Assembly: GCA_947085655.1 (NCBI GenBank)
Contig: CAMTXH010000009.1
Coordinates: forward strand, 3,738-67,737
From: an uncultured Omnitrophica bacterium
Lineage (GTDB): Bacteria > Omnitrophota > Gorgyraeia > JACQQV01
DNA: 64,000 nt
Direction: 5' to 3'
Part shown: in pieces, positions 28,031 through 58,801 of the stretch
How positions within the stretch are numbered: the stretch's first letter is position 1
Layout: every line of letters begins with the position of its first letter
The notes under the pieces: model-generated
The model's input: the letters and a program-made list of their open reading frames with translations, nothing else
Told to the model about the DNA's origin: nothing
Databases searched by the model: none
Position numbers and translations under genes: made by a program

Positions 28031-29634
28031 CAACCCTTGCGGCACCCTCCGAAAAGACATCCTGGAAATTCCTCCTCGGGTTTGTCATTCTCGCCCTCTT
28101 TTTCGCCTTTATCATTGACAAGGAAGTGACGTTCCCGACGCCGGTCCTTGTGGCAGGGGCCGGTCTTGCAGGCCTGGCCCTCTTTTTAAGTGCTTTTATC
28201 CGGCCGGAGATTCCGCTTTATGTTCTTCTTGTTTACATTCCGTTTAACCGGCTTCTCATCGGGGATTTCGGCGGAGCGATGACGGCCCTGAATGTGACAA
28301 ATATCCTTTGCATTATTGCGTTTCTGGCCTGCCTTTCCCCGTCGACGCAGGGAAGAAATTACCCGCCGGCCAGTTCCCTTCACATTCCCATTATCCTTTT
28401 TGCGGTTCTCGGGATGCTCAGCTTTGTCCGGGGAAGCTGGGAGTACGGCTCCTGGTATCTCTGGAACTTTATCAATCCGCTCAAGCGGTGGCTCACCCCC
28501 ATCCTTTTTTATGCCCTAGCGCTCTGTTTGATTCGGGACCGGAAGATTCTGAAGACTTCGGTCATCATCATCATGGTGACCGTGACCCTTGCCGGACTCA
28601 TGGCGATCAAGGACTATATCGACATCGGGCAGGTCGGTTCCATCGAAAAGGCCCGGGTCGGGGGTATTGCGGACCAGCCGAACATGCTTTCCGCCTTTTT
28701 CTGCTACTACATGTTCCTCACAGGCGGATTTTTCCTGATGAATTACCAAAAGCCGAAGTATTGGCTTCTCCTCATCCCGTTCCTCATCTGTTTTCGGGGG
28801 ATTCAGGTGACTTTCTCCCGGGGAGGATACCTCGCCTTTTTTGCGGGGGCCTTTGCCCTCGTTTTTTTCAGGAACAAAATCTTTTGCATCCTCGCGATTT
28901 TTCTCGCCGTCCTCGCTTTTTTAAACCCGGCCATCCTCCCCTCGGGGATTAATTACCGCCTCCTCTCCACCTTCCAGAACGTGGATGCACTGGATGAAGG
29001 GGACCTCACCAATGCCGCCTACGATGTCTATAAGGGAAAGGCCGAGATCCTTGACGGAAGCGCCCGGGGACGCCTTGAGATCTGGAAGGGAGCGGTCAAA
29101 ATGATCAGCGAGAATCCTCTCGGAACAGGATACGGCACCTTCACCGGGCTGATTCCTTATTACGCCCCGAAACTTCAGGGGGCCCGTATGGATGCGCACA
29201 ACAATTATCTCCTGGTGGCTGCGGAGATGGGGATCCCGGCGCTTTTGGTGATGCTTTGGGTCTTTGTGGCGGTGATGTTTAAGATCTACTGGCTTTACCG
29301 TCATGCGCGTGACCCCTTCCACAAGGCGGTGGCCCTCGGCTTTCTGGCCGGGATGTTCGGCCTTTTGATGTCGAATATGTTCGGTTCCCGGTTGGATTCG
29401 CAGGAAGTTTCGGGCTATTTTTGGGTTTTGAGCGCGGTGATTGTCCGGGCAATCGCCTTTGAGCGCTCCGATAAAACGCCTGCGACTGTGAAATCTGTCT
29501 CCGACGGAACCCGGGAAAAAAAAAGGCGCGGAAACGAATCGAACGGATTTGAGGTTTCTCAATCACTGACTCAAACGCTCCGGCGGTTCGACGAGATGAA
29601 ATATGGAGAAAACGAACGTCCTTTATCTGATTGA
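28027..29634 (+). CDS. Wzy/O-antigen-ligase-family membrane protein (EPS polymerase or ligase)
   Basis: ~12 TM helices; Wzy_C motif HNNYLLVAAEMGIPALL in a periplasmic loop. Confidence 0.75.
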   Translation: MTTLAAPSEKTSWKFLLGFVILALFFAFIIDKEVTFPTPVLVAGAGLAGLALFLSAFIRPEIPLYVLLVYIPFNRLLIGDFGGAMTALNVTNILCIIAFLACLSPSTQGRNYPPASSLHIPIILFAVLGMLSFVRGSWEYGSWYLWNFINPLKRWLTPILFYALALCLIRDRKILKTSVIIIMVTVTLAGLMAIKDYIDIGQVGSIEKARVGGIADQPNMLSAFFCYYMFLTGGFFLMNYQKPKYWLLLIPFLICFRGIQVTFSRGGYLAFFAGAFALVFFRNKIFCILAIFLAVLAFLNPAILPSGINYRLLSTFQNVDALDEGDLTNAAYDVYKGKAEILDGSARGRLEIWKGAVKMISENPLGTGYGTFTGLIPYYAPKLQGARMDAHNNYLLVAAEMGIPALLVMLWVFVAVMFKIYWLYRHARDPFHKAVALGFLAGMFGLLMSNMFGSRLDSQEVSGYFWVLSAVIVRAIAFERSDKTPATVKSVSDGTREKKRRGNESNGFEVSQSLTQTLRRFDEMKYGENERPLSD

Positions 29635-31927
29635 TAAACTTGAGGTGGCAGGTGCCCAGCGGCACCTTGCGGCACTCCTGAAGCGGATAGACCGCGGGCG
29701 CTTTTCGCCGCGGTTGGTCTGTCTCTCCCGGGAAGGGCACTTGACCGAGGAAATCCGTTCCCTGGATGTCCCGGTTACGGTTCTGGACGTGAAGCGAATT
29801 TACGACCTGACAGGAATTCGGGGTCTATTCCGGCTTGTCCGGATTTTGAAACGGGAGCGGATCGATGTCCTTCATGCGTACCTTTTCAGCGAAAACATTC
29901 TGGGTGCCCTTGCAGCGCGCCTGGCCGGAACCCGGATCGTCCTGACCAGCCGGAGGGACACGGGGAGACTCCGGGAAGGAAAACGGAGACACTTTCTCGC
30001 GTATCGACTCACGAATCGATGGGTTGACCGGGTTGTCTGCGTGAGCGACGCCGTGAAGAGGGTGGTTTTGGAAAAAGAGAAAGCCGCTCCGGAGAAAGTA
30101 ACGACCATTCCGAATGGCGCGGAAGGTGAACGGTCATTGGCGGAGTGCGAGAAATACCTTCAAAGGGACGCGTACGGTCTTTCGGAGAAAAACTTTCTTG
30201 TGACCCTCGTAGCCAACTTAAGCTGGATCAAAGGCCACCGCGTCTTTCTGGATGCGGCAAGCAGGGTGAAGGCACAAATGCCGGAAGCACGGTTTTGGGT
30301 CATCGGGGAAGGACCGCTCCGGAAAGCGTTGGAAGAAAGGGCTTCGGAACTCGGGTTGTCAAAGCATGTCCGGTTTTTCGGGCGGGTGGCCGATTCAAAG
30401 TCACTTCTCCGGCTTTCCGATGTTTCCGTCAACACTTCTTTTTCGGAAGGGATGTCCAATACCCTTTTGGAATCGATGGCGCTCGGGATTCCGGTTGTGG
30501 CGACCGGCGTGGATGGCAATCTGGAGACGGTGATAGATGAGGAAAGCGGGCTTCTTGTTCCGCCCGGCGATCCGGAGGCACTGGCAGAGACCATTCACCG
30601 TCTTGGAAACGATAAGAAACTGAGACAAAGAATCGGAGAGGCGGGCCGGGTCCGAATTAAGACCGTCTTGAGTCTCGACCGAATGATCCGCTCGGTGGAG
30701 CAATTGTACGGCACGCTCCTTTCACCGAAAGTGCAGTTTATCTTTTCAAAATTCCCCTGCTATGACGAAACGTTTATTCTACGGGAGATGAGGGAATTGA
30801 AAAAGCAGGGGCTTGGTCTTTCCATCCTTTCCCTTAAAAGGGGGAAAGACCCTGTTGTTCACGGCGATGCGACCTTCCTCGTGGAGGAGACTTTTTATCT
30901 TCCGTTTCTCTCATGGGGGACTATGGCGGCGACAGTTGGGATGTTTTTCACGAAGCCCCTCCGGTTTGTTTCAACACTCGGTCTTTTGATTGCGAAACAG
31001 TGGCGGGATCCCGAGTTTCTCATCAAAAGTATCGCCATTTTTCCGAAGTCGGTCGCCCTGGCCGGGAGTCTTCGAAAAAGGAATATCCGCCATCTTCACG
31101 CGGAATGGGCGACACACCCGGCCACGAGTGCCTGGGTCGCCTCCCGGTTTTCCGGGATCCCCTACAGTTTCACGGGGCATGCTCATGATATCTATCTGAA
31201 AAAGACCTTTCTTCCGGAGAAATTAGAGGCGGCCTCCTTTGTGACGACCTGTACCCGGGATAACAAGCGTTATCTGGCCGCTTTGAAGCCGGAGATCTCT
31301 CCCTCCAAAATACATGTCTGTTACCATGGAGTGGATCTGGAGCGTTTCAGACGGAACGGGAACGCCGTGAACGGAAAAATCCTCCTTCTTTCGGTCGGCT
31401 CGCTTCTGGCATGCAAGGGATTTGAGGATTTGATCGAGGCCTGTTTGTATCTGAAAAGGGAAGGGTTCTCTTTTGAATGTCTGGTGATCGGCGGCGGTCC
31501 TCAGGAAGCGGCCCTCCGGAGAAAAGTGGCCCGGCTTGACCTGACCGATTCGGTCCGGCTACTCGGATATATGAAGCAAGAAGAGCTGGTCCCTTATTAC
31601 AAGCGGGCAGACCTTTTTGCCCTGCCGGCCCGGCTGGACCGGCACTGGGGAATTCCGAATGTCCTTTTGGAAGCAATGGCGGCAGAAGTGCCGGTCCTGT
31701 GCACCCCCCTTCCTTCCATTCCGGAGTTGATTCAAGATCAGGTGAACGGTCTTTTGGTTCCGGAAAGGGATCCGAAGAAACTCAGCGAGGCGATAAGCCG
31801 ACTGATCCGGAATGAGTCCCTCCGGAGAAAAATGGGGGAGGCGGCCTTCCGGACCGTCTCGGAGCATTTTGACGCCGTCAAGAACGGCTCAACTCTTCTT
31901 CGGCTCTTTGAGGAAAAAATCCGATGA
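29603..31927 (+). CDS. tandem GT4-GT4 fusion glycosyltransferase (second module resembles PEP-CTERM/EpsH-system 'stp' sugar transferases)
   Basis: Module 1 ends ...EGMSNTLLESMALGIPVVATGVDG; module 2 starts VQFIFSKFPCYDETFILREM and ends ...LLEAMAAEVPVLCTPLPSIPEL. Confidence 0.75.
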   Translation: MEKTNVLYLIDKLEVAGAQRHLAALLKRIDRGRFSPRLVCLSREGHLTEEIRSLDVPVTVLDVKRIYDLTGIRGLFRLVRILKRERIDVLHAYLFSENILGALAARLAGTRIVLTSRRDTGRLREGKRRHFLAYRLTNRWVDRVVCVSDAVKRVVLEKEKAAPEKVTTIPNGAEGERSLAECEKYLQRDAYGLSEKNFLVTLVANLSWIKGHRVFLDAASRVKAQMPEARFWVIGEGPLRKALEERASELGLSKHVRFFGRVADSKSLLRLSDVSVNTSFSEGMSNTLLESMALGIPVVATGVDGNLETVIDEESGLLVPPGDPEALAETIHRLGNDKKLRQRIGEAGRVRIKTVLSLDRMIRSVEQLYGTLLSPKVQFIFSKFPCYDETFILREMRELKKQGLGLSILSLKRGKDPVVHGDATFLVEETFYLPFLSWGTMAATVGMFFTKPLRFVSTLGLLIAKQWRDPEFLIKSIAIFPKSVALAGSLRKRNIRHLHAEWATHPATSAWVASRFSGIPYSFTGHAHDIYLKKTFLPEKLEAASFVTTCTRDNKRYLAALKPEISPSKIHVCYHGVDLERFRRNGNAVNGKILLLSVGSLLACKGFEDLIEACLYLKREGFSFECLVIGGGPQEAALRRKVARLDLTDSVRLLGYMKQEELVPYYKRADLFALPARLDRHWGIPNVLLEAMAAEVPVLCTPLPSIPELIQDQVNGLLVPERDPKKLSEAISRLIRNESLRRKMGEAAFRTVSEHFDAVKNGSTLLRLFEEKIR

Positions 31928-33822
31928 GACGATTTTTGAGGGAACTGATCAGCACCGGACTTTATCTTTTCCTTCGGGAAGATCGGGAAGGAGAACTCCG
32001 CGTCTTGACCTATCATCGAGTCAACCGGACTTCACCCAAGGACCGTCTCTCAGTCCATACAGATTCTTTCCGGAAACAGATGCTGTATCTGGCAAGGAAG
32101 GGCTACCACACACTGACGGCGGAGGATCTTTCGGAGATTCTCCGGCAAAAAAGACCGATCCCCCGAAGATCTATTCTCATTACCTTTGACGACGGCTATC
32201 GCGACAATTTTACGGATGCCTATCCGGTCCTCCGTGAGTTCGGCTTCAAGGCGACGGTTTTTGTGGCGACGGAGCTGGTCGGAAAAACACACGACGGACA
32301 TCCGATGCTCCGCTGGAATGAAATTCAGGAAATGACCACAGGCGGAATCTCCCTCGGGAGTCATACCGCCCGTCATGTTTATCTGAACGAGGTTTCCCCG
32401 GAAACCGGACGCCGGGAACTTGAAGATTCCAAACGACTCCTCGAGACAAAGCTCGGGCAAAACGTTCGCTCCTTCTGTTATCCCTTCGGGGATCTGGATG
32501 GGGAGTCGGTCGCTTGGGTGAAGGGGGCAGGATATGATATTGCATTTACAACGCGGCCGGGTCCGGTCCAACAAAGCACGGATCCTTTTTGGGTGAGCCG
32601 GACGGAGGTGAGCGGTTTCGACACCCTTTTTGATTTCAGGAAAAAACTGGCCGGCGCCTTTGACTGGCTTCACCGGTTTGTCCAAAGGAAAAAAAAGAGG
32701 GAACGGAAAATAGGACCGATCCCGGTTCTTTACGTCATCTGGTCTCTCGGCCTTGGAGGAGCGGAACAGGTGGTGTTGACACTCGCCAAGGGGCTGGACC
32801 GGAGGCGCTTCAAGCCGCTCGTCGCCTGTTTAAACGAACCGGGACGCTATGCCGGGGTCCTCGAACGGGAAGGGATTCGCGTTATTTCCCTTCACAAAAA
32901 GGGAAAGTTCGATTTTTCGATTATTCCGAAACTCATCCGGCTGATCCGGGAAGAAAAAATTCAGATTGTGCATACGCATCTTTGGGGAGGGAACGTCTGG
33001 GGAAGGATCGCGGCCTTCATCGCCCGGGTCCCGGTTTCGATTGCAACCGAACATGGGATTCAGGAATGGCGGGGGGCTCTTCACCGGTTGATCGACCGGG
33101 TCCTTGCGAAAGTCTCCAACCGGGTTCTTTTTGTGGCAGAGTCGGTCAAAGAAGATTTTTGCCGGATGACCGGGGTGAGTCCGCAGAAGTGCTTTGTGAT
33201 TCCAAACGGCGTCGACCTTGAGCGCTTTTCGCCTGCCCAAGATCCAAAAGCCCTCCGAAAAAGACTCGGACTCCCGGCGGAGGGGAAAATCGCCTTGAGC
33301 ATCGGGAGACTTTCACCGGAGAAGAAATTTGACCTTCTGATTTCTGCCCTTCGGAGCCGTCTTCTTGAGGGCGAGTTGCATCTTGTCATTATCGGAAGCG
33401 GCCGGGAAGAGAAAAACCTTTTGGCCTTAAAGGAGAGATTCGGTTTGGATGGGAGAGTACAACTGTTTAGCGAACAGGGGGAGCTCGAGCCGTTTTACGG
33501 CGCGGCCGACTGCTTTATCCAATTTTCCTCTCGGGAAGCATTGTCCCTCGCGCTCCTTGAGGCGATGGCATCAGGACTTCCGGTGATTGCTTCGGCGGTG
33601 GGAGACCACCCGAAGGTGATCCGGGACGGGGTAGACGGTTTTCTGGTTCCCGCAGGCGATACAGGGGAATTGCTTCGGAAACTACGGATTCTTTTTGAGG
33701 ACTCTAAAGCGGGAGTCTGGATCGGGCAGAAAGCGCGGGAGACGGTTCGCTTGCGTTATTCGAAAGAGCGGATGATCCGGGAGACGGAAAATCTTTATGA
33801 GGAATTGATGCGACATGATTAA
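31924..33822 (+). CDS. NodB polysaccharide deacetylase / GT4 glycosyltransferase fusion
   Basis: N-terminal NodB motifs (LTYHRV, ITFDDGYRDNF, GSHTARH); C-terminal GT4 (VLYVIWSLGLGGAEQVV...ALSLALLEAMASGLPVIAS). Confidence 0.75.
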   Translation: MRRFLRELISTGLYLFLREDREGELRVLTYHRVNRTSPKDRLSVHTDSFRKQMLYLARKGYHTLTAEDLSEILRQKRPIPRRSILITFDDGYRDNFTDAYPVLREFGFKATVFVATELVGKTHDGHPMLRWNEIQEMTTGGISLGSHTARHVYLNEVSPETGRRELEDSKRLLETKLGQNVRSFCYPFGDLDGESVAWVKGAGYDIAFTTRPGPVQQSTDPFWVSRTEVSGFDTLFDFRKKLAGAFDWLHRFVQRKKKRERKIGPIPVLYVIWSLGLGGAEQVVLTLAKGLDRRRFKPLVACLNEPGRYAGVLEREGIRVISLHKKGKFDFSIIPKLIRLIREEKIQIVHTHLWGGNVWGRIAAFIARVPVSIATEHGIQEWRGALHRLIDRVLAKVSNRVLFVAESVKEDFCRMTGVSPQKCFVIPNGVDLERFSPAQDPKALRKRLGLPAEGKIALSIGRLSPEKKFDLLISALRSRLLEGELHLVIIGSGREEKNLLALKERFGLDGRVQLFSEQGELEPFYGAADCFIQFSSREALSLALLEAMASGLPVIASAVGDHPKVIRDGVDGFLVPAGDTGELLRKLRILFEDSKAGVWIGQKARETVRLRYSKERMIRETENLYEELMRHD

Positions 33823-35236
33823 GAAAATTTTGATTTTTATTCTGCTTGCGGCGGTCCTTGCAGGGGGTGCGATCGGATGGAAAGTCTATGAAACGCGCCC
33901 CTGGCTTCCCGCGCTTCTCCTTCACCAGCTCTTTCAAAAAGAGCCGGCGGGCGAGGCAAAGGGCCCCGTGGACATCATCTTTGTTTTTGCGGACCATTAT
34001 GAACCGCATCATATCGCGGCGGCCGAGCGGTGGGAGAAGATATACCGCCGGCTGGCAAGCCGTCACCGGGATGCGGACGGGAAGATGCCCCAGCACACCT
34101 TTTTCTGGTACTGGTCGGATGAGGGGGACCAGAAGGGCATCGAGTATCTCAAACGGCTTGCGCATCTTTCGTACGACGGCTATGGAGAGGTAGAGCTCCA
34201 CCTCCATCATGACGATGATACCGAAGAGACGGTGAGAGTGGATTTGGAGCGGCGGATACAACTTTCCCAGAAGACCGGCGCGTTTCTCACGGCAGAGGAA
34301 GAGCCAAAGACCGCCTATGCTTTTATTCATGGCATGTGGGCGCTCGACAACTCCCGGGACGGACGTTACTGCGGAGTGAACAAAGAACTGGAGGTCCTTC
34401 GGGAAAGCGGTTGTTACGCCGATTTTACCCATTCCTCCTGGGGAACCATGAACCCGAGAATAGCGAATTCCCTCTATTATGCCAAGGATGACTCAAATCC
34501 GAAGTCCTATGATAGGGGACGAAAAGTGGAAGTGGGCGGAGAGCCGTGGGGAGATCTTTTGATTTTCATGGGGCCCAGTGTCCTTTCTTTTGAGAACGGC
34601 CGATTCTATTACGACCATGGGGATGTGACCCTGGAGGAACTTCCGACTCCCGACCGGATCCGCCGCTGGGTCCGCACAGCCATTCATGTTCAGGGGAGGC
34701 CCGAATGGGTTTTTGTGAAGGTCTTCACCCACGGAACCATCGCCCGGGATCATGAAGCGCTTCTCGGGAAGTGGGCAGAGCGGATGTATCAAACCCTCGA
34801 GACCCATTATAACGACGGAAAGCGGTACCGGCTCCACTATGCCTCCTCACGGGAGGCCTACAATATCCTGAAGGCGGCGGAGGCGGGACATTCCGGAAAT
34901 CCGAATGACTTCCGGGATTTTGTGATTGTTCCCTACGCGAACCAGAAAATTCTCGCCTCGATCCCCTATCAGCTTGTGACCTATTCTCCGGAGCGTGTGG
35001 AACTGATTCCGGCGGGCGGGGAGGGAAACTTCCGGTTTAAAGAAGGTTCGGTGGAGGAGGTTCAGGGGGACTTCTCGCGAATCGTGATTGTGAATCCCTT
35101 TGAGGCGGAGCCGGACCTCCGGTTCGAGGGAGGAGGAACCGCGTGGGTCAAACTCCGGGACCGGACAGAGCCGTTTCAGGTGGTACTGGAAGAAGGAGCG
35201 GAAAAGACGGTAAGAGTTGAGGGGAGCCAGCCGTGA
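33815..35236 (+). CDS. membrane-anchored hypothetical protein, His-rich, possibly a metal-dependent carbohydrate-active domain
   Basis: N-terminal TM (ILIFILLAAVLAGGAIGW) then soluble domain with FADHYEPHH / LHLHHDDD clusters; family not assignable by eye. Confidence 0.45.
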   Translation: MIKKILIFILLAAVLAGGAIGWKVYETRPWLPALLLHQLFQKEPAGEAKGPVDIIFVFADHYEPHHIAAAERWEKIYRRLASRHRDADGKMPQHTFFWYWSDEGDQKGIEYLKRLAHLSYDGYGEVELHLHHDDDTEETVRVDLERRIQLSQKTGAFLTAEEEPKTAYAFIHGMWALDNSRDGRYCGVNKELEVLRESGCYADFTHSSWGTMNPRIANSLYYAKDDSNPKSYDRGRKVEVGGEPWGDLLIFMGPSVLSFENGRFYYDHGDVTLEELPTPDRIRRWVRTAIHVQGRPEWVFVKVFTHGTIARDHEALLGKWAERMYQTLETHYNDGKRYRLHYASSREAYNILKAAEAGHSGNPNDFRDFVIVPYANQKILASIPYQLVTYSPERVELIPAGGEGNFRFKEGSVEEVQGDFSRIVIVNPFEAEPDLRFEGGGTAWVKLRDRTEPFQVVLEEGAEKTVRVEGSQP

Positions 35237-38200
35237 AGAAGTGGTTTGGGCTTGTCATTCTTGTTGTGCTTTTGATCGGGTTGGGACTCCGCAGCCCTTT
35301 TTTCAAAAAGGGAAAAGAGTTGCCGGAATTCGGGAGGACCGCCGGTGAATTTGTTCTGGGAGACTTTGAGTCTGAAGAGGCGCTGAAGAATTGGGAGGCG
35401 AAAGGGGTCTTGGTTTTTCTCACCGAACAATATGCGGTCCGGGGGAGACACTCGGCGAGTCTTAACTATTCGGACGATGGAAATCCGGTCTTTGCCCTGG
35501 AACAGTATTTCCGGACGCATGAACAGGCGCGGGACTGGCGGCCGTATGAGGAGCTTCTTTTTACCGTTTTCAATCCCGGCCAGACAAAGGAGCGGATCGG
35601 GCTCCAGGTCAAGGACGGCTCATCCCGCCGGTATAAGGAAGATATTGTCATTCCGGCCAATAGCGCCCTCTCCCACCGTCTTCCGATGAAAAAGATCGCC
35701 CCCTTTGTCGATTTGAGGGATATCGCCCAGTTGAATTTTTTCCGTTGGGATCCGAAAAAGACGGCCGTCTTTTTCCTGGACGACGTCCGGCTGATCCCGC
35801 AACCGCAAGAAGCACCGAAGAAGGAAGGAAAAACGACGGAGGCATTTTCCTTTGACGGCTCCATCCGTCCCACCTCTCCGAATGCGGTGAGCGGACAGCT
35901 CTTTCACCGCTATGCGGAAAAATGGGAGGTGACCGAGAACGGAGAAACATTTCTCCGCATTCCCCTCCGCGTGGCGCAGGATCAGTCTTTTCTCTTTGAG
36001 GGGACGCCGGTTTCGGGAGGGATCCCTTTTCCTTACGGTCTTCTGAAAGCCACCACGTCCTTTAAATTACGGACTGCGGGGGGGACGGAACTTCCGATTC
36101 AAATCCGTCCCCTTGCTTTTTGGGAGGACGGCTCCGTCAAATGGCTCCACGTGAATACCGAAGGGACCGCCAGGGCGGCCGATCAGGGACTTTTTTTCGA
36201 GATTCACAAATCCCCGCCGTCAAAGCCCAACGAGACGCCCCTAAAGGTGACGCAGGATTCCGGTCAAATGACCGTCGTGACCGGTCCCCTGAAATTTTCC
36301 GTGAATAAGGCGAAGTTTACGCTCCTGGAGGAAGTCTTTCTCGACCGGAACGGCGACGGACAATTTTCGCCGGAGGAAAAGGTTGCCCAGGGAGGGGACC
36401 TTTTTATCCGCCATCGGGATGAAATGTTCCGCTCTTCCCTCAGCCGTCATTACACATTGGCGGTGGAGGAGATCGGCCCCCTCCGGGTGACGCTCAAGGC
36501 AAGCGGCTGGTTCACCAACGAATCCGGAAGACCCTTTTGCCAGTACGAGGTGCGGATCCAGGCCTTTTCCGGGAAAAGCGACATTCGCCTTTTCCATACA
36601 TTGATTTACACCGGTTATCCGGCAAACCGCTATCACCACGAATACGAGAATGTCAAACTGCCGGAGAATGAAACGATTGAGGAAATCGGGATCGAACAGT
36701 TTATTTCCGAAAAGGGAATCGGACGCTATCAAGTGGGACTCCCGGAGAAGGCATTGACCGGAACATTCCAGAAACCATTGGTTCTTTCGCAACTCAAGGC
36801 CGACGGCTTTCAGTTGAATCAGGGTGAAAAGACCCTTCATCAGGGGGAGAAGGCACTCGGGTGGTTGCATGCCGCTTCAGAGTCGTTTGGGGTGACGGTG
36901 AACGTCCGCGATTTCTGGCAGCAGTACCCGAAGGAAATTCATCTGGATCCGGCAGGGAAACTCACCGTTTCCCTTTGGCCCCGTTCCGCAGGGGTCTTGA
37001 ATCTTGAAACAGGGCCGGCCGCCGAGGGTCCTGATGCGGTGGCGCGCGGTTCTGCGTTCGGGCTGGCCAAAACCCATGAATTGACCTTTTCCTACCATCC
37101 CGGATGGGTGGATCCGCAGACTCTCCATCCGAAACTTTCGCTTTGGCAGCACCCTCCCCTCCTTCACTCCAGTCCGGAGTGGGTCTATGCCACCTACGCC
37201 CTTGGCTCTATCGGTCCCTACTCCCCTTTATTAGAGGAAGAGGAATTGTTGAAACGCCTTTTTGACTGGGCGGCGCGGCAGCCGGAGCGGTTCGGCTGGT
37301 ATGGGATGCTCGATTACGGAGACACCCTTTTCTGGTACCGGAAAGAGGGCTATGACAAATCTTATCCGGACTGGGGATGGCATCCGGAGGGGCGCTGGGG
37401 CTGGTTTAACTGTGAAGGGGTCGGGACCCATACCGGAGCTCTTTTTCAATTCATCCGGACCGGAGATTACCGGTATTTTGCATTCGGCGAGGCCTCCGCC
37501 CGGCACATCATGGATGTGGATACGATTCACTATGATACGGTGGCGAACGACCCGCGGCTTCGGGAAAAAATCATCGGGGATCACAGCCGCGTGGGGGCGA
37601 TGCACCGTCATAATGCCAATCACTGGGGAGGGCGTGCGGACGAGGCCTCCCACACCCATCCTTTCGGATTCCTTCTCTATTATTATCTGACCGGCAACGA
37701 ACGGGCGCTCGAGGTGGCAAAAGAGGTCGGGAGCTACTTTTTGGGACGGCCGATTACCTATACCCGTCATCCGGACATCGCTCCGCAGCGGGCCATCGCC
37801 AATGTCCTTTGGGGGGATGTTCTTCTCTATGAAGCGACGCGAAAGGAACGTTTTAAAAAGGAGGCGGACCATTGGGCGGCTCTCTTTGTGAACGGCCAGA
37901 GGGAGGACGGCGGTTGGGGGGAGAATTACAATCCGCAGCTCGGGACGTGGGATCACGAGGCGGGGATGCGTTTCATGATATTTCATACACTGCCTGCGTT
38001 GATTGCCTATCACCGTCTGACCGGAAGTCCCGAGGTGGAACAAGCGATCATCAAGGGGACGGAACACCTCATGGCACACGAAGACTATCTCCCTTTTTTT
38101 GATTCATTGGCGTACGCCTATGAATTGACCGGAGAGGTTCGGTATCTCGATGAGGCCCGCCGGCGCCTCTCCGAACAGGTTGCCGCGCAGGATAGAAGCG

Positions 38201-39912
38201 GCGATCCGATGAAGGACGGAATGCTCTTTGAAAAATTCACGTACGATCGTGTCCCTCCTCTTTTGTACAACACCCCTTACCTCTTCGGAGTCAGAAATCC
38301 AAAACTCCTTGAGGCGTACCGGAAGGCGATGGCAGAGGAACCGGAAGTTCACCCAAAGACAGGTTACACCCTCTTTTTTGCCTCCCCGTTGGAGCGGGTT
38401 TTCCGAGACACACCCGTTTCAAAACTCCAAAGGGCGAATCCGATTCAAATCGCCTTGGCGGTCAACGAATCCGAATCGTATCAAATTGTCCTTGCGGCAG
38501 GCGGGGAAGATCTGAAAGGCGTTCGACTTGACGCCGGTCCCCTTATTCATCAAGACGGCATCTCTGTCATCGGACAGAATCAGATCCGTCTTCACCCTGT
38601 CGGCTATGTCCCGGTGAAGAAATCGGATCATCTCAAAGAACTGGAAGGGCTGGTGCCGGATCCGCTTTTACCGATGGAGCCCTTTGAGGTCAAGAAGGGA
38701 ACCCTTCAACCGGTTTGGGTCACTGTCACCGCCCCTCCCGGAACGCTTCCCGGTGAATACGAAGGTTCGCTGACGCTCTCTTCCGAAAATGCTCCCTTCC
38801 AAAAGATCGCCCTGCGGGTGCGGGTGTGGGCCTTTGAGCTGCCGAAACAGCCGCATCTTAAGACCGCTTTCGATTTTTACCGGAGCCGGCTCGTTCAGGC
38901 ATACGAGAGTTTTTTTCCGGAGTGGTGGGAGAAGTGGAAAGGAACTGTCGGGAAACTCGAGGAGCGGTATTTTGAGGCGATGCTCCGATACCGGATTTCA
39001 CCCGTTCTCAATATTGATCCCGCGCGCCGGGAGGATATCCGGAAGGTCCTTCGCCTCCGGATGCAGGGACTCAATGCGTTCGCCATCGGTCCTTACAGCG
39101 GCAGTCACGGAAACAACTGGCCGGATGACCTGACCCAGGTTATTCCACGCTACCGCGAATACGGACGGTTTCTCCGGGATTACGGCCTTTTGGAGGACGC
39201 GTATCTTTATACCTATGACGAGCCGAAGGCGGGGACGGAAAAGGTGGCCACCGTCTCCCGGGCCGTCCACGAAGCGGACCCCGGATTAAAGAATCTTGTG
39301 GCATTCCATCAGCCCTTCCGTTTCGAGGAGGAGCAGGAATGGTTTCGGGATATCGATATTGTTTGCATCCGGAATGTGATTTTTGACCCGAAAGAGGCGG
39401 AGAAGATTCGAAAAGCAGGGAAGGAACTTTGGATTTACTGCTCCGGCCCCTCTTTTCCGTATCCGACCTTTGTGATTGATTATCCGACGATGGCATACCG
39501 GATTCTCCCCTGGATGTGCTGGAAATACAATGTCTCCGGCCTTCTCTACTGGTGTGTCAATTTCTGGACGAAGAATCCGTATCTTGACCCGGTGAATACC
39601 CAGTGGGAGCAGAACGGAAACGGGTCCCTTTTTTACCCCGGACCGGAAGGGCCGGTCGGCTCGATTCGGCTTGAGATTATCCGGGACGGGATTGAGGATT
39701 ATGACATGCTGGCGATTCTCTCCGAGCGGCTGAAGGGAGCGAGGTCGGACGGGAGCGTCCTCCCAGCGGTCCTCCGGCAGGCGGAGGATGTCCTGCTTCA
39801 GGCGGAGCACCTCACCCCCTCGATGGAGAAATACCCCCAAGATCCGGAAACTCTTCTTTCTTTGCGGGAGAAAATCGCCGAAGCGATTCAATCCCTCGGA
39901 GGGAACCGATGA
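35233..39912 (+). CDS. very large (1559 aa) secreted/anchored multi-domain protein; C-terminal region resembles DUF4091/GH123-like glycoside-hydrolase-associated domain
   Basis: N-terminal signal/anchor (WFGLVILVVLLIGLGL); central Trp/Gly-rich region (WGWHPEGRWGWFNCEG) resembling heparinase-II/III-type (alpha/alpha)-toroid proteins; C-terminal PYPTFVIDY...LLYWCVNFW motif like DUF4091. Confidence 0.55.
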   Translation: MKKWFGLVILVVLLIGLGLRSPFFKKGKELPEFGRTAGEFVLGDFESEEALKNWEAKGVLVFLTEQYAVRGRHSASLNYSDDGNPVFALEQYFRTHEQARDWRPYEELLFTVFNPGQTKERIGLQVKDGSSRRYKEDIVIPANSALSHRLPMKKIAPFVDLRDIAQLNFFRWDPKKTAVFFLDDVRLIPQPQEAPKKEGKTTEAFSFDGSIRPTSPNAVSGQLFHRYAEKWEVTENGETFLRIPLRVAQDQSFLFEGTPVSGGIPFPYGLLKATTSFKLRTAGGTELPIQIRPLAFWEDGSVKWLHVNTEGTARAADQGLFFEIHKSPPSKPNETPLKVTQDSGQMTVVTGPLKFSVNKAKFTLLEEVFLDRNGDGQFSPEEKVAQGGDLFIRHRDEMFRSSLSRHYTLAVEEIGPLRVTLKASGWFTNESGRPFCQYEVRIQAFSGKSDIRLFHTLIYTGYPANRYHHEYENVKLPENETIEEIGIEQFISEKGIGRYQVGLPEKALTGTFQKPLVLSQLKADGFQLNQGEKTLHQGEKALGWLHAASESFGVTVNVRDFWQQYPKEIHLDPAGKLTVSLWPRSAGVLNLETGPAAEGPDAVARGSAFGLAKTHELTFSYHPGWVDPQTLHPKLSLWQHPPLLHSSPEWVYATYALGSIGPYSPLLEEEELLKRLFDWAARQPERFGWYGMLDYGDTLFWYRKEGYDKSYPDWGWHPEGRWGWFNCEGVGTHTGALFQFIRTGDYRYFAFGEASARHIMDVDTIHYDTVANDPRLREKIIGDHSRVGAMHRHNANHWGGRADEASHTHPFGFLLYYYLTGNERALEVAKEVGSYFLGRPITYTRHPDIAPQRAIANVLWGDVLLYEATRKERFKKEADHWAALFVNGQREDGGWGENYNPQLGTWDHEAGMRFMIFHTLPALIAYHRLTGSPEVEQAIIKGTEHLMAHEDYLPFFDSLAYAYELTGEVRYLDEARRRLSEQVAAQDRSGDPMKDGMLFEKFTYDRVPPLLYNTPYLFGVRNPKLLEAYRKAMAEEPEVHPKTGYTLFFASPLERVFRDTPVSKLQRANPIQIALAVNESESYQIVLAAGGEDLKGVRLDAGPLIHQDGISVIGQNQIRLHPVGYVPVKKSDHLKELEGLVPDPLLPMEPFEVKKGTLQPVWVTVTAPPGTLPGEYEGSLTLSSENAPFQKIALRVRVWAFELPKQPHLKTAFDFYRSRLVQAYESFFPEWWEKWKGTVGKLEERYFEAMLRYRISPVLNIDPARREDIRKVLRLRMQGLNAFAIGPYSGSHGNNWPDDLTQVIPRYREYGRFLRDYGLLEDAYLYTYDEPKAGTEKVATVSRAVHEADPGLKNLVAFHQPFRFEEEQEWFRDIDIVCIRNVIFDPKEAEKIRKAGKELWIYCSGPSFPYPTFVIDYPTMAYRILPWMCWKYNVSGLLYWCVNFWTKNPYLDPVNTQWEQNGNGSLFYPGPEGPVGSIRLEIIRDGIEDYDMLAILSERLKGARSDGSVLPAVLRQAEDVLLQAEHLTPSMEKYPQDPETLLSLREKIAEAIQSLGGNR

Positions 39913-40700
39913 AAAAGGGAAATGTCTTCCTTCCCATTTTGAATTATCATGCGCTGACCGACGGCGGATTTTCTCCCGACGGGATTTACACCCTTTCGAA
40001 GGAGGTTTTCCAAAGACAGCTTGACATTCTTGCAAGAAACCGGATGCAGAGCGTTTCACTTGAAGAGGTGTGGCAGTGGCTTCCGGGGAAAAGGGATCTG
40101 CCGGAGCGGGCGGTGGTTTTGACTTTTGACGACGGGTGGATAAGCGATTTTTCCGTGGCAGTCCCTCTTTTGAGGCAATACGGATTCCGCGCCGCCTTCT
40201 TCGTCAATCCCGGAACACTGGACACCGAAGGTTATCTCACAACAGATGCCCTCAAGGAAATGGGACGTTCCGGCATGGAAATCGGTTCCCACGGATTTGA
40301 CCATCTCTTCCTGACGACCCTTGCCGATGCGGACCTTGCGGTGCAGGTGGAAACCTCAAAGATTGAACTTGAGATTCTTCTCGGAAAAGAGATCCACTTT
40401 TTTTCGATTCCAAGGGGCCGCTACGACGAACGGGTTTTGAAGGCGATCCGGGATGCCGGTTATCGGCTGGCATGCAGTTCCGATGTCGGTTTGAACCGGC
40501 AAGACACAGATCCCTTTCGTCTCCGCAGGTGGGCCCTGAAGCGTTCCACCCGCGAGGACGATTTTATCTCCATTGTGGAGGGAAGACCGAAAAAACATCT
40601 TTTCGCGGAATATTTTTTCAAAGATGCGGCTTACCGGCTCTTAGGCCATACGGCGTATGAATGGGTTCGGAATAGGCTTCTCAAGGAAAGCATGACATGA
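39909..40700 (+). CDS. NodB-type polysaccharide deacetylase (PEP-CTERM-locus type)
   Basis: LNYHAL...LTFDDGWISDF...GSHGFDHLFL: NodB motifs 1-3. Confidence 0.8.
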   Translation: MKKGNVFLPILNYHALTDGGFSPDGIYTLSKEVFQRQLDILARNRMQSVSLEEVWQWLPGKRDLPERAVVLTFDDGWISDFSVAVPLLRQYGFRAAFFVNPGTLDTEGYLTTDALKEMGRSGMEIGSHGFDHLFLTTLADADLAVQVETSKIELEILLGKEIHFFSIPRGRYDERVLKAIRDAGYRLACSSDVGLNRQDTDPFRLRRWALKRSTREDDFISIVEGRPKKHLFAEYFFKDAAYRLLGHTAYEWVRNRLLKESMT

Positions 40701-41830
40701 CCACTCTTTTCTGGTTTTCGGTTTTTATTCTGATTTACATCTACATCGGATATCCGGCTCTTTTGGGCGTTGGGTCCCGGTTTTTCCGGAAGCCGGTCCG
40801 GAAGGGGGCCGTTTTCCCGACCGTCTCGGTCCTCCTTTCCGCTTATAACGAGGAAAAGGTTATCCAGCGAAAGATGGAAAATCTCCTCTCCCTCGATTAT
40901 CCGGATGAAAAGATTGAAATTCTGGCCGGCTCCGACGGCTCGACGGACGAAACACCCTCGATCCTCCGGTCCTACGCGGGGGAACATGTTCATCTGGTCA
41001 TCCAAACCGAAAGAAAAGGGAAGGCCAAGATGCTGAACGCCCTTTTTCAAAAGGCAAAAGGGGAGATTCTGGTGTTGACGGACGCCCGCCAGCGGATCGA
41101 CCGGCAGGCGATCCGGAGACTTGTCCGGAATTTCAACGACCCGAAAGTCGGCTGCGCAAGCGGCGAACTGGTCCTCAAAGAAAACGGCAATTCCGTCGGG
41201 AAAGGGATCGGCCTTTACTGGAACTACGAGAAATTCATCCGAAAGACCGAGAGCGAAATCGACTCCGTCATCGGGGCGACGGGTGCTTTGTACGCGATCC
41301 GGAGGTCCGTCTGGCGTCCGATTCCGGAGGAGACGATTTTGGACGATCTCTATCTTCCGATGCAGGCGGTCTCCCAGGGATTCCGGACCGTCTTCGACGG
41401 CGAGGCGCGGGTGTATGACGTGACTTCTCTCACCCCCAGGCAGGAATACGAACGGAAGGTGCGGACGTTGGCGGGGAATTACCAAAGTTTCGTCCAGTTT
41501 GCATCTCTTTTTAACCCTTTTCGGAGCCGCGTCGCGCTTCAATTCATCTCGCATAAACTTCTCCGAATCCTGGCGCCCTTTTTCCTGGCGACTCTTTTGG
41601 CGGCAAACGGGTTTCTATGGGAGGACCTTTTCTACCGAATTTTCTTCTTCATGCAGTCGGCCTTTTATGCGATGGCGGCAGTTGGGGCGTTTGCGCCGGT
41701 GAAGCGGATTCGCTTTTTTGCCGCACCGTATGTCTTTTGCCTGCTGAATTTCTCCGCGCTGGCCGGACTGGTCCGGTATCTTTCGGGAAGACAGCATGTC
41801 ACCTGGCAGAAAGGGGGTCTTTTGTCGTGA
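40697..41830 (+). CDS. membrane-bound GT2 glycosyltransferase
   Basis: N-terminal TM, VSVLLSAYNEEKVI...ILAGSDGSTDET...LTDARQ, C-terminal TM helices. Confidence 0.8.
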   Translation: MTTLFWFSVFILIYIYIGYPALLGVGSRFFRKPVRKGAVFPTVSVLLSAYNEEKVIQRKMENLLSLDYPDEKIEILAGSDGSTDETPSILRSYAGEHVHLVIQTERKGKAKMLNALFQKAKGEILVLTDARQRIDRQAIRRLVRNFNDPKVGCASGELVLKENGNSVGKGIGLYWNYEKFIRKTESEIDSVIGATGALYAIRRSVWRPIPEETILDDLYLPMQAVSQGFRTVFDGEARVYDVTSLTPRQEYERKVRTLAGNYQSFVQFASLFNPFRSRVALQFISHKLLRILAPFFLATLLAANGFLWEDLFYRIFFFMQSAFYAMAAVGAFAPVKRIRFFAAPYVFCLLNFSALAGLVRYLSGRQHVTWQKGGLLS

Positions 41831-42621
41831 AACTCGCTGCGATCGGAATTCTTTTCCTCTTTGCCTATTTTCCGACGCTCGTTTGGATGGCGGACCGTTG
41901 GATGGCGGCCGATTCCTATTACGGGCACGGTTTTCTGATTCCGCTTGTGAGCGCCTACCTTGTTTGGCGCAAGCGGAAGGAAATTGCGCAACTTCCGAAG
42001 GAATCTTCAAGCTGGGGGCTTGTTCTCCTTGTCGTCGGGCTTCTCATTCATCTGGCGAGCGCTATGGTCAAGGTCTATTTCACCTCCGGTTTCTCGATCC
42101 TGATTTCCGTTTCGGGGCTGGTTCTCTATCTGGGGGGAAAACGGCTGCTCCGGGCGGTCGGGTTTCCGATTTTCATGCTCTTTTTCATGATTCCCTTTCC
42201 GCTCGTTGTCATCGGAACGGCGGTCCTCCGGTTGAAACTGTTTGCGGCGATGTGCGCCACCGTGATTCTTCATCTGATCGGGATGCCGGCAGTCCAGCAG
42301 GGAAGCACCATCTTTATGCGGAACGCCACCGTTCTGGTGGATGATCCGTGCAGCGGACTCCGTTCGCTCCTTTCGCTTCTGACACTCGGGGTTTTGTTTG
42401 CCTATCTGAAGCAGGCCCGACTTTCAAGACGGGTCCTCTTTTTCCTTTCTTCCATCCCGATCGCGATTTTTGCAAATGTCATCCGGATTGTGATGCTGGC
42501 CGGGATCGCCGACATTTACGGGGTGGATGTGGCATTGAAATTCTTCCATGACTTCTCCGGTTTTGTGGTATTCGGGCTTGCCCTCGGGGGATTGTCACTC
42601 GTCGGGAGAGTTCTTCAATGA
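41827..42621 (+). CDS. epsH: exosortase (EpsH/Xrt family transpeptidase)
   Basis: Likely GTG start at 41827 overlapping upstream TGA (ORF-track start 41617 is an upstream extension); 8 TM helices; invariant exosortase motifs DDPCSGLRSL (Cys) and FANVIRIVML (Asn/Arg). Confidence 0.8.
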   Translation: MKLAAIGILFLFAYFPTLVWMADRWMAADSYYGHGFLIPLVSAYLVWRKRKEIAQLPKESSSWGLVLLVVGLLIHLASAMVKVYFTSGFSILISVSGLVLYLGGKRLLRAVGFPIFMLFFMIPFPLVVIGTAVLRLKLFAAMCATVILHLIGMPAVQQGSTIFMRNATVLVDDPCSGLRSLLSLLTLGVLFAYLKQARLSRRVLFFLSSIPIAIFANVIRIVMLAGIADIYGVDVALKFFHDFSGFVVFGLALGGLSLVGRVLQ

Positions 42622-43250
42622 AAAAAAACTGGGTTGTGAGCACCATTTTATTCATCATCGTCGGAGCGATCTCTCTCCACTTTTATCAGATTCAACGCGC
42701 CACCCACGATACAAGGGATATCCGGAAGATTCCGATGGAACTGGGCGGGTGGCAGGCAAGGAATATCCAAGTGACGGATCGGGAGTATGAGGTGCTTGAG
42801 ACGCGAAATCTGATTTCCCGCGAATACCGGAATGGAAAGGGAGAGTCGATGAGTCTTTTTGTCATCTATTCCGAGACAAACCGCCGCGTCTGCCATCCGC
42901 CGGTCGTCTGCCTGATCGGAAGCGGCGCTACCGTCAACCAAAGCGGCCGCTCATTTCTTTCGTTCCCGGAAAAGGAAATTCCGGTCAACACCCTGATGGT
43001 TCAATCCGGAAATCAAAAAAATCTGGTTCTCTATTGGTATATGCTGGATGAATCCTTCACGGAGGATTACTTCACCCAGCAGTTTCGATGGGTCATCCGC
43101 CAAGCGATGGGTCACCGGGGAGGAGGTGCGCTCATCCGCGTCGTGACGCCCCTCCATGGAACGGAAGAAGAGACGCTCGAACGGGTAAAGGAATTTATCC
43201 AAGAACTCCTTCCGCATCTGACAGAAGAAAAGAAGGTCCGCTCGACCTAA
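42618..43250 (+). CDS. epsI: EpsI-family exosortase-associated protein
   Basis: 210 aa, N-terminal TM anchor then periplasmic domain, immediately downstream of and overlapping the exosortase gene (ATGA), as in EpsH/EpsI pairs. Confidence 0.7.
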   Translation: MKKNWVVSTILFIIVGAISLHFYQIQRATHDTRDIRKIPMELGGWQARNIQVTDREYEVLETRNLISREYRNGKGESMSLFVIYSETNRRVCHPPVVCLIGSGATVNQSGRSFLSFPEKEIPVNTLMVQSGNQKNLVLYWYMLDESFTEDYFTQQFRWVIRQAMGHRGGGALIRVVTPLHGTEEETLERVKEFIQELLPHLTEEKKVRST

Positions 43251-43513: not shown

Positions 43514-44332
43514 ATGAAGCCATTCAGGAAAACCCAAAGCGCTAGAGGAAGAATTCAACTTACCGTGACTCTCGGAGTAGCACTTCTTGTGCTCGTGGGT
43601 CTTGCAACGGTTTGGTGCGTCAACTCCTTTTCAGACACCGGTGCATTCGGAGCACAACACAAGATGCCGGTTCCTGAACCGAGCAGTGCTATTCTTCTTG
43701 GCGGAGGCGGCATTTTGGGCGCCATCGTGCGGTTTGCCCGGCGCCGTTTTCAGGAGTTCAAACGGGCTTTCGATCTCTTCTTTGCATCCCTGGGTCTTTT
43801 GGTCTCCCTTCCGATTCTGGCGCTCATCGGCCTCTGGATTAAGTGTATCTCAGCCGGGAGCGTTTTCTTCACACAGGAACGGGTCGGAAAGGATGGCGCG
43901 CTTTTTACGATTTATAAACTCCGGACGATGCATAACGGTGCGGAGGCCGAAACCGGGCCGGTTTGGGCCCGGGAGAACGACCCGCGCCTGATTCCTTTCG
44001 GGAAGTGGATTCGGAGACTTCACCTGGATGAGATTCCGCAGCTTTGGAATGTTCTCCAGGGAGAGATGAGTCTGATCGGACCCAGACCCGAGCGCCCCGA
44101 ATTTGTCCAAGAGCTCCAAAGAGCCATCCCGGATTACGAAAAGCGTTTAAAGGTGAAGCCGGGGATCACGGGACTCGCGCAGGTCTGGCACAAATATGAC
44201 GAAACCCTTCAGGATGTCCGGAAGAAGATTAAATACGACCTTCTCTACATCCGAAAGATGTGCCTCTGGGTGGACTTGCGGATTCTGGCGAATACGGTCC
44301 TTGTGGTGTTGACCGGAAGGGGGGCACGCTAA
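43514..44332 (+). CDS. priming polyprenyl-phosphate sugar-phosphotransferase (Bac_transf/WbaP-C-terminal type) carrying an N-terminal signal-peptide + PEP-CTERM-like module
   Basis: aa 83-272: KRAFDLFFASLGLLVSLPILALIG...FTQERVG...KLRTM...PGITGLAQV = Bac_transf catalytic domain. aa 1-80: hydrophobic signal-like helix then VPEPSSAILLGGGGILGAIVRFARRRF, same pattern as the three PEP-CTERM tails downstream. Confidence 0.75.
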   Translation: MKPFRKTQSARGRIQLTVTLGVALLVLVGLATVWCVNSFSDTGAFGAQHKMPVPEPSSAILLGGGGILGAIVRFARRRFQEFKRAFDLFFASLGLLVSLPILALIGLWIKCISAGSVFFTQERVGKDGALFTIYKLRTMHNGAEAETGPVWARENDPRLIPFGKWIRRLHLDEIPQLWNVLQGEMSLIGPRPERPEFVQELQRAIPDYEKRLKVKPGITGLAQVWHKYDETLQDVRKKIKYDLLYIRKMCLWVDLRILANTVLVVLTGRGAR

Positions 44333-45590: not shown

Positions 45591-45613
45591 AAAACAAGGA
45601 GGAGGTAAGTAGC

Positions 45614-58546: not shown

Positions 58547-58801
58547 TTATTGTTCCAAAACCTCAGACTGACTCCCCTCTGTGGCCGCCTCGGTCAGCTT
58601 CGGTGTTTTGAAGTGGGATGGCGGCAGCACGATGCGGGAAGCATTTTCCACTCGACCGAGCAGGCGAATCCGCTCCGCCTGCAACTCACTTTCCGGACGA
58701 GAAGAAGGGAGCATGGTGCTCCTCTCCAAAAGAGCCGACATGCCCGCAAGCATTACAATCAGTCCAAGAGTAATTAAAAACCAAAGTCCTTTTGATTTCA
58801 T
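58547..58801 (-). CDS. small single-TM protein, last gene of the prepilin-type operon
   Basis: 84 aa; TM LWFLITLGLIVMLAGMSALL; 4-nt overlap with upstream gene. Confidence 0.45.
   Translation of the reverse strand: MKSKGLWFLITLGLIVMLAGMSALLERSTMLPSSRPESELQAERIRLLGRVENASRIVLPPSHFKTPKLTEAATEGSQSEVLEQ

Follow-up and report, generated by a model that had tools for sequence, protein, structure and literature searches.

A predicted membrane-tethered enzyme with two glycan-active modules encoded within a PEP-CTERM/exosortase exopolysaccharide locus of an uncultured Omnitrophota bacterium

The 1559-residue protein and its domains

We analyzed a 64,000-nucleotide stretch of DNA from an uncultured Omnitrophica bacterium (contig CAMTXH010000009.1 of assembly GCA_947085655.1, positions 3,738 to 67,737 of the forward strand; hereafter the window), centering on a gene for a protein of 1559 amino acids (aa). 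This gene lies inside a typical PEP-CTERM/exosortase locus for exopolysaccharide (EPS) synthesis, which occupies about 6.5 to 52 kb of the window (Table 1). The open reading frame (ORF) proposed in a first-pass annotation of the window was borne out: a public database protein (P0001) has the same start and differs from it solely by E778G. The gene overlaps both of its neighbors by 4 nt, its start forming a GTGA with the stop of ORF 33815..35236 and its stop an ATGA with the ATG of ORF 39909..40700, and GAGGGGAG is found seven nt 5' of the GTG. In a scan for promoter- and terminator-like sites, their frequency around and inside the gene was not above that of shuffled sequence, and the lack of an excess is expected inside an operon. 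The conserved domains and the residues that are invariant over 40-55 homologues set this ORF far beyond a chance reading frame.

The N-terminal signal or anchor noted in the first-pass annotation corresponds to one hydrophobic segment (aa 5-23), and such a segment opens every homologue, in some of them behind a 40-aa N-terminal tail. It is probably an uncleaved signal anchor, the topology being inferred from the hydrophobicity profile, and as a single N-terminal segment it is only suggestive of an extracytoplasmic location. No NCBIfam model matched the protein. As judged from profile matches and AlphaFold2 models, the anchor is followed by a jelly roll resembling a carbohydrate-binding module (CBM), a three-domain PcRGLX/PL26-like module and a GH123 module composed of a beta-sandwich, a (beta/alpha)8 barrel and a helical tail.

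The C-terminal module is a genuine member of the enlarged GH123 family, which takes in Groups 1-4 of Sumida et al. (2024). Pfam matched PF13320 (GH123_cat, the former DUF4091) at aa 1311-1496 with 90.5 bits against a cut-off of 23.1 and PF22680 (Glyco_hydro_123_N_2) at aa 1081-1183 with 35 bits against 27, in agreement with the DUF4091/GH123-like region that had been suggested. The closest solved structures by sequence were NgaDssm (8K2J, E 3e-30) and NgaCa (8K2F, E 1e-27), and NgaCa ranked first with a profile of 55 sequences (E 8e-64). The AlphaFold2 model of aa 1035-1559 had a mean predicted local distance difference test score (pLDDT) of 95.7, and the best 22 Foldseek matches to it were all GH123-family structures, with E values of 7e-38 to 4e-26 and template modeling (TM) scores of 0.68-0.83. 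NgaCa 8k2f was the top match (E 7e-38, TM 0.78/0.83, 26% identity) and NgaDssm the second, with the classical GH123 enzymes ranking below them.

Catalysis by GH123 enzymes is substrate-assisted and carried out by an Asp-Glu pair, and all groups of the family have nine conserved residues in common (Sumida et al. 2024, PMC11087588). The pair corresponds to D1329-E1330, which is invariant in 14 of 14 fusion proteins; across 55 homologues of the module E1330 is invariant and D1329 is kept in at least 90%. The seven further residues found in all GH123 groups are also present (D1143, W1162, Y1402, G1436, W1440, Y1468 and R1479); each is the same as the residue aligned with it in 8k2j and in 8k2f, and each is either invariant or at least 90% conserved in the 55 homologues. 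Their counterparts in NgaLy, mapped by motif context and spacing, are D95, W115, Y392, G427, W431, Y466 and R478. Conserved catalytic residues, which the first-pass annotation had proposed to look for in orthologues, are thus seen for this half of the protein. The LLYWCVNFW motif, located where it had been quoted, contains W1440, which the alignment places at the position of a substrate-recognition residue.

NgaCa from Cohnella abietis (PDB 8K2F) and NgaDssm (PDB 8K2J) are oligosaccharide-releasing beta-N-acetylgalactosaminidases of Group 1 and Group 3, respectively (PMC11087588). The window module shares with them the beta-sandwich, the (beta/alpha)8 barrel, the helical tail, the DE motif and all nine family-invariant residues. 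On sequence and model it appears nearest to the cleft-type, oligosaccharide-releasing Group 1, the structurally simplest, and at about 515 aa, compared with 516 aa for NgaCa, it has no spare length for pocket-forming insertions. Unlike NgaCa and NgaDssm, it forms one polypeptide with a membrane anchor, a CBM-like domain and a PL26-like module that precede it, and is encoded within an EPS biosynthesis operon; its activity is predicted from sequence and model.

The jelly roll behind the anchor resembled the CBM11 structure 6r3m in Foldseek (TMt 0.67) and gave weak Pfam matches to Agarase_CBM and CBM_11 (E 0.03). It is 29-33% identical to the N-terminal domain of two stand-alone GH123 enzymes (P0059 and P0081).

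Residues ~230-1035 form a three-domain PcRGLX/PL26-like module. PcRGLX is a PL26 exo-rhamnogalacturonan lyase of Penicillium chrysogenum (PDB 5XQ3, 5XQG, 5XQJ and 5XQO), and PL26 enzymes release alpha-L-Rha-(1->4)-alpha-D-GalA from the reducing end by beta-elimination (PMC13501991). PcRGLX was detected by phmmer (E 2.5e-18) and with a 40-sequence profile (E 7e-85). The AlphaFold2 model of aa 30-1040 (pLDDT 91.6) had PcRGLX as its sole full-length Foldseek match (5xqg, E 5e-36, TM 0.62-0.71), spanning about 960 columns, and the next matches were partial and poor. At 18-19% identity, the two proteins share the RIFT barrel, the beta-sandwich and the alpha/alpha toroid as well as the motifs WYGxLDYGD, RHxx(D/E)VDxxH and RHxxxHW, which in the window protein read WYGMLDYGD (aa 689-697), RHIMDVDTIH (757-766) and RHNANHW (792-798). 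The Trp/Gly-rich stretch WGWHPEGRWGWFNCEG, confirmed at aa 714-729 as quoted in the first-pass annotation, is the most conserved part of the toroid and aligns with PcRGLX TWRYDVGGYAWDNSE. Over 40 sequences D697, G720, W724, R742, H758, D763, H797 and W798 are invariant in the toroid, and R721, E728, H766, R792 and H793 are nearly so. Unlike PcRGLX, the module has a membrane anchor and a CBM-like domain added on its N-terminal side, and its setting is EPS synthesis rather than pectin degradation.

Three other assignments of this region were rejected. The first-pass annotation had called it heparinase-like, but no Pfam family of that type matched, a profile search reached only PDB chain 6ljl at E 0.33, and heparinase II/III-like proteins were missing from the top 50 Foldseek matches; such lyases share with the module only the generic alpha/alpha toroid and beta-sandwich. 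The structure prediction proposed earlier thus supported a GH123 fold for one half of the protein and, in place of a heparinase, a PcRGLX fold for the other. The distal half of the toroid showed a weak likeness to GH127 barrels in a profile search (~1e-8), and a GH127 beta-L-arabinofuranosidase was considered for aa 864-984, but PF07944 scored 22.2 bits, below its cut-off of 24.9, and the profile alignment covered only GH127 positions ~90-350, a part of the barrel. A completely novel fold, the remaining earlier suggestion, does not hold for either half, since both were modeled at pLDDT >91 and matched to solved structures.

The PcRGLX-like module differs from PcRGLX at a site that bears on its chemistry. 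We compared the PDB sequences of native PcRGLX chains with that of the tetrasaccharide-substrate complex 5XQO, using HMMER alignments over residues 330-653, and found a single difference, Y437F (SEQRES index). As the sole change over this range in the substrate complex, this substitution implies that Tyr437 is needed for turnover, and we presume it to be catalytic. Tyr437 sits in a 16-residue loop, QLDALEITYEDWEPGF. The window protein has a deletion of this loop, as do all 11 of the related proteins from EPS loci described below; the Tyr of the 'xYED' motif is retained in 47 of 86 relatives from species-representative genomes. The clade is further marked by KTHE in place of PcRGLX RTSE right after the deletion, and by an EGYDKSYPDWG insertion. 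By sequence, the module thus falls within the PcRGLX-like superfamily and lacks the Tyr looked for as the sign of PL26-type catalysis, and because the Tyr-bearing loop is deleted, lyase activity of this half is doubtful. Two conserved, clade-specific residues, H615 and Y711, the latter in the DKSY part of the insertion, could replace the Tyr.

Relatives and the conserved slot

Full-length fusions of the two modules are rare. Among 5.8 billion proteins they form 14 clusters at 90% identity, all of those bearing a name being labeled Candidatus Omnitrophota or Omnitrophica, and when 1.84 billion representatives were searched exhaustively, no more than five matched across the junction. Related PcRGLX-like proteins of about 1050 aa are without the GH123 half.

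We then compared gene neighborhoods from context look-ups and a tblastn table, counting as related those loci that encode a relative at >=37% identity (37-63%, n=11). A CE4 gene follows downstream in all 11, and a GT2 gene in nine, the contigs of the remaining two ending first; exosortase/EpsI genes are nearby in six. In contrast, none of 74 loci of distant relatives (23-31% identity) has CE4, GT2 or exosortase/EpsI. The order in the related loci, which are mostly labeled Candidatus Omnitrophota, is GT4/Wzy-like genes, the slot gene, CE4, GT2 and often exosortase/EpsI.

The contents of this slot vary: some loci have only the PcRGLX-like module there and some only the GH123 module, and where both are present they are either neighboring genes or a fusion. 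The PcRGLX-like module stands alone in four loci (L007, L008, L012 and L013), and in L004 the two modules are neighboring separate genes of 955 and 759 aa. A stand-alone GH123 gene occupies the slot in L090, where the order is GT4 genes, GH123, CE4 and GT2, with an exosortase further on, and another lies behind GT4 genes in L091, whose contig ends before CE4 or GT2 could appear. The leader domain is common to the fusion and the stand-alone GH123 enzymes of the slot. We describe this arrangement as a conserved 'glycanase slot', in which predicted catalytic modules are swapped behind a common anchor-plus-CBM leader.

Two further features of the relatives are recorded here. Four of the homologues (P0009 and P0012-P0014; L006 10001..15670) carry a Metallophos (calcineurin-like phosphoesterase) domain of ~290 aa after two N-terminal hydrophobic segments, and in L008 this domain is a separate gene (12393..13241) directly 3' of the PcRGLX-like gene, which suggests that a phosphoester-cleaving step is linked to the slot enzymes. 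In addition, the closest relative in a species-representative genome, at 63% identity (L010, CAMTXJ010000007.1), is titled 'Candidatus Peregrinibacteria', and another locus (L015, CAZIRV010000087.1) 'Planctomycetales'; the remaining phylum-labeled close relatives are all Omnitrophota, and these two labels may be binning or naming errors.

A predicted role in processing the exopolysaccharide of the locus

We consider it probable that the protein is an enzyme tethered to the membrane, that it has two catalytic modules and that it serves specifically to process the EPS made by its own PEP-CTERM/exosortase locus. This reading is supported by the family assignments, the intact GH123 residues, the confident fold matches and the synteny in 11 related loci, and the gene is both encoded within and conserved with a biosynthetic operon, as seen in the 4-nt overlaps and in the recurrence of the slot in the 11 loci and in L090 and L091. 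The first-pass idea of a polysaccharide lyase or hydrolase acting on the EPS made alongside it is supported in its core, although it is doubtful, with the loss of the Tyr loop, that the PL26-like half is a lyase. The physiological role is inferred from sequence, models and gene context.

In the mechanism that we propose, the anchor would hold the enzyme on the outer face of the inner membrane, beside the Wzx/Wzy and export machinery, where the CBM-like domain may bind the nascent polymer. The GH123 module would cut beta-linked N-acetylgalactosamine (GalNAc), or possibly N-acetylhexosamine (HexNAc), by substrate-assisted retaining hydrolysis through an oxazolinium intermediate, with D1329 predicted to position the 2-acetamido group and E1330 to act as the acid/base; these roles follow those of the two DE-motif residues in PMC11087588. 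Because its nearest counterparts are cleft-type, oligosaccharide-releasing enzymes, the module would cut within chains or near their ends. A mechanism of this kind would allow cutting only at N-acetylated residues, so that de-N-acetylation by the CE4 enzymes of the locus would set the cut sites. The PcRGLX-like module might cleave a second linkage, by beta-elimination or by hydrolysis, and the overall effect would be to edit the chain length of the cell's own EPS, to release it or to clear it, in the manner of PslG, PelA, PgaB, AlgL and BcsZ.

Glycanases and lyases encoded within biosynthetic loci are a general paradigm (PMC4928890, PMC5933820, PMC8829089, PMC9894940), and processing of the producer's own EPS is documented for PslG and PelA (PMC4928890, PMC9894940), PgaB (PMC5933820) and AlgL (PMC8829089). 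The known EPS-operon enzymes comprise PslG (GH39), the hydrolase domain of PelA (GH166), the C-terminal domain of PgaB (GH153), BcsZ (GH8) and AlgL (PL5). Like these, the window gene lies among synthesis genes with which it is probably co-transcribed, and processing of the corresponding polymer is predicted here; as in the Pga and Pel systems, the enzyme is encoded next to a deacetylase and a GT2. Unlike them, it belongs to unrelated families (GH123 and PL26-like) and combines two catalytic modules in one anchored polypeptide, and its locus combines Wzx/Wzy with an exosortase, in contrast to the classical synthase-dependent systems.

The GH123 family, the PcRGLX-like superfamily and the presence of a glycanase inside an EPS operon are already known. 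New are the two-module fusion, the anchor-plus-CBM leader, the Omnitrophota slot upstream of CE4-GT2, often with an exosortase nearby, and the swapping of modules there. We found no paper on the fusion, the leader, the link of the slot to CE4-GT2 or the module swapping, and the literature held nothing specific tying DUF4091/GH123 or PL26 to exosortase loci or to Omnitrophota.

Several observations weigh against this interpretation, in addition to the missing Tyr loop. Positive charges flank the anchor on both sides and the Metallophos-bearing relatives have two hydrophobic segments, which leaves the topology of the protein ambiguous. Five of the 11 related loci lack the GH123 module, which is therefore accessory and dispensable there. 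In the window, there are no nucleotide-sugar genes indicating GalNAc or a uronic acid in the polymer. The downstream CE4 enzyme has a weak match to HfsH (NCBIfam); HfsH-type deacetylases act in the cytoplasm, and an enzyme that, like this one, is without a signal peptide may deacetylate lipid-linked units there rather than the exported polymer. Moreover, the natural substrates of NgaCa and NgaDssm were not identified, and neither enzyme cut the glycolipid oligosaccharides and chondroitin sulfates on which it was tested (PMC11087588).

A further-reaching proposal, which we offer tentatively and regard as rather doubtful, concerns both halves of the protein. The PcRGLX-like half may represent a previously unrecognized Tyr-less clade, PL26-like in fold and with a conserved His/Tyr set of its own, perhaps with a different chemistry, that is a near-constant occupant of the swappable slot upstream of CE4-GT2 in Omnitrophota, often with exosortase/EpsI nearby. 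The fused GH123 module may in turn show what the cleft-type, oligosaccharide-releasing beta-GalNAcases act on in nature: the substrate class sought for them would be beta-GalNAc-containing EPS made by the producer itself. Sumida et al. (PMC11087588) had speculated that the cleft-type enzymes act on long exopolysaccharides of repeating units.

Alternatively, the protein could serve assembly, with GH123, the PcRGLX-like module or both acting as a transglycosylase or transferase that re-links EPS segments, or the whole protein acting as a polymer-binding export scaffold; a transferase could direct such segments to another chain, to the cell surface or to the PEP-CTERM proteins handled by the exosortase. 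The tight coupling of the gene to CE4, GT2, exosortase and EpsI across lineages would fit such a role, as would the anchor with its CBM-like leader and a PcRGLX-like clade that lacks the presumed lyase Tyr and yet keeps many polar residues invariant, and transglycosylation is possible with retaining mechanisms. We nevertheless consider an assembly role unlikely, because the characterized members of GH123 and PL26 are all degradative, no sequence feature is specific to transfer chemistry, and the interchangeable modules of the slot are reminiscent of polymer-specific depolymerases.

It is still less likely that the PcRGLX-like half is catalytically dead and has a binding or structural function, leaving GH123 as the sole enzyme. 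The clade-wide deletion of the loop with the Tyr that is a Phe in the trapped substrate complex would be explained in this way. However, the polar residues shared with PcRGLX (D697, R742, H758, D763 and H797) are invariant over 40 sequences, which argues against an inactive module, the clade-specific H615 and Y711 offer a possible substitute for the Tyr, and the occurrence of the module alone in the slot of several loci argues for a function of its own.

Finally, we regard as very improbable a foraging enzyme for foreign glycans such as GalNAc glycoconjugates or pectin-like polymers, whose position in the EPS operon would be incidental: although characterized relatives are catabolic (PcRGLX acting on rhamnogalacturonan I and GH123 on host glycans) and distant PcRGLX-like relatives are common in polysaccharide-degrading phyla outside EPS loci, the gene overlaps biosynthetic genes by 4 nt on both sides, the same slot recurs in 11 related loci and in the stand-alone GH123 loci, no transporters or sugar-catabolic genes are adjacent, and the protein appears membrane-tethered, not secreted.

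If processing of the producer's own EPS is indeed the function, this would give the cleft-type GH123 enzymes a physiological setting and a substrate that can be tested, and a Tyr-less PL26/PcRGLX branch would be defined that is tied to polymer synthesis instead of pectin degradation and may have a new activity. In an uncultured nanobacterial phylum, the EPS loci of the PEP-CTERM/exosortase type would then obey the rule known from Psl, Pel, PNAG, alginate and cellulose, that the operon carries its own glycanase, and in Omnitrophota this glycanase would sit in a modular, swappable slot. Such enzymes would also be practical tools for dispersing or analyzing the matching EPS. If this is wrong, the protein would merely be an unusually large multidomain carbohydrate-active enzyme.

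The surrounding locus

Table 1. Positions in the window of the 1559-aa gene, its domains and motifs, and the neighboring genes.
Feature	Position (nt)	Strand	Residues (aa)	Basis or remark
Whole ORF	35233..39912	+	1559 in total	GTG start, stop codon; 4-nt overlap with both neighbors
N-terminal hydrophobic segment	35245..35301	+	5-23	Kyte-Doolittle scan; the one such N-terminal segment
CBM-like beta jelly roll	35338..35802	+	~36-190	AlphaFold2 strands, Foldseek; 'LGDFE...W' motif
PcRGLX-like N-terminal RIFT-barrel domain	35926..36210	+	~232-326	PF19501, 43.5 bits against cut-off 22.1; AlphaFold2 model
PcRGLX-like central beta-sandwich	36244..37107	+	~338-625	PF21345, 59 bits against 23.5; C-terminal end is the invariant GSAFGLAKTHE
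Site of the absent 16-residue loop QLDALEITYEDWEPGF	37036..37068	+	602-612	Alignments with PcRGLX
PcRGLX-like (alpha/alpha) toroid	37114..38337	+	~628-1035	PF21346, 43.7 bits against 23.8
GH123 N-terminal beta-sandwich	38365..38871	+	~1045-1213	PF22680, AlphaFold2 model, alignments to 8k2j and 8k2f; holds D1143 and W1162
GH123 (beta/alpha)8 catalytic barrel, including former DUF4091	38881..39657	+	~1217-1475	PF13320, Foldseek, profile
Catalytic DE motif	39217..39222	+	D1329-E1330	Codons GAC GAG; alignment with DE of NgaDssm and BvGH123
LLYWCVNFW motif	39541..39567	+	1437-1445	Alignments; G1436 just before, W1440 inside
C-terminal helical domain of GH123 module	39664..39900	+	~1478-1556	AlphaFold2 model; begins at structural residue R1479
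Upstream coupled gene	33815..35236	+	473 in total	Single N-terminal anchor, large soluble part, His/Asp-rich invariant motifs; in 5 related loci
Downstream coupled CE4 polysaccharide deacetylase	39909..40700	+		TFDDG and HGFDH motifs intact; without signal peptide or hydrophobic segment
GT2 glycosyltransferase, PgaC/NodC-like	40697..41830	+		1 N-terminal and 3 C-terminal hydrophobic segments
Exosortase (EpsH family) and EpsI	41827..43250	+		Define the PEP-CTERM/exosortase EPS locus

The first-pass annotation had described the gene as translationally coupled between a membrane protein and a deacetylase. The 4-nt overlaps and the CE4 gene downstream agree with this, whereas the upstream protein has one N-terminal hydrophobic segment and is mostly soluble. 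It had no match in Pfam, NCBIfam or the PDB, and across five related loci its identity is 48-68%. The invariant motifs F.ADHYEP, GE.E.HLHH, FIHG.WALDNS, YDHGD and VKVFTHG suggest that it is a metal-dependent enzyme from a family not yet described. Two other identities were rejected for this ORF: a second Wzy-like polytopic membrane protein, in view of its one hydrophobic segment and its lack of similarity to the Wzy_C protein of L004, and a divergent CE4 deacetylase, for which hhalign gave a probability of 0.5%.

The locus encodes export and chain-length functions (Poly_export, Wzz/GNVR, an AAA_22 ATPase, a tyrosine-kinase-like ATPase and a Wzx-type flippase) together with several GT2 glycosyltransferases, GT4 domains fused in threes and twos and a CE4+GT4 fusion. 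Its modification genes comprise an ATP-grasp+CE4 fusion, two AsnB-like amidotransferases and GNAT acetyltransferases, and it also contains a Wzy_C protein, the exosortase, EpsI, a Bac_transf initiating transferase and PEP-CTERM proteins, as well as a TPR protein, a histidine kinase and a sigma-54 response regulator as regulators. The fused biosynthetic enzymes are unusual: these are the three-GT4 protein (24710..28030), the two-GT4 protein (29603..31927), the CE4+GT4 protein (31924..33822) and the ATP-grasp+CE4 protein (12313..14589), all on the + strand, and with ORF 39909..40700 the locus totals three CE4 domains. The AsnB-like amidotransferase genes lie at 15253..17115 and 17810..19624 (+). 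By analogy, such enzymes might amidate uronic-acid carboxylates, which would bear on the substrate for a lyase in the polymer.

Downstream of the GT2 gene, the mechanically called exosortase ORF (41617..42621, +, 334 aa) overlaps GT2 by 214 nt; on near-identical contigs the exosortase is called from the equivalent of 41827 (41827..42621, 264 aa), which gives another 4-nt overlap. Bac_transf (43514..44332) and two or three small PEP-CTERM proteins (44808..45590, 45587..46297 and 46362..46703, all +) follow, the latter being presumed exosortase substrates. Within its N-terminus, the mechanically called Bac_transf ORF gave a weak PEP-CTERM match, the probable cause being a start placed too far 5' or a transmembrane helix. 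Lastly, 3' of the EPS locus, 58798..61247 (-) encodes a DUF4900 protein together with a small protein whose N-terminal methylation motif is type IV pilin-like.

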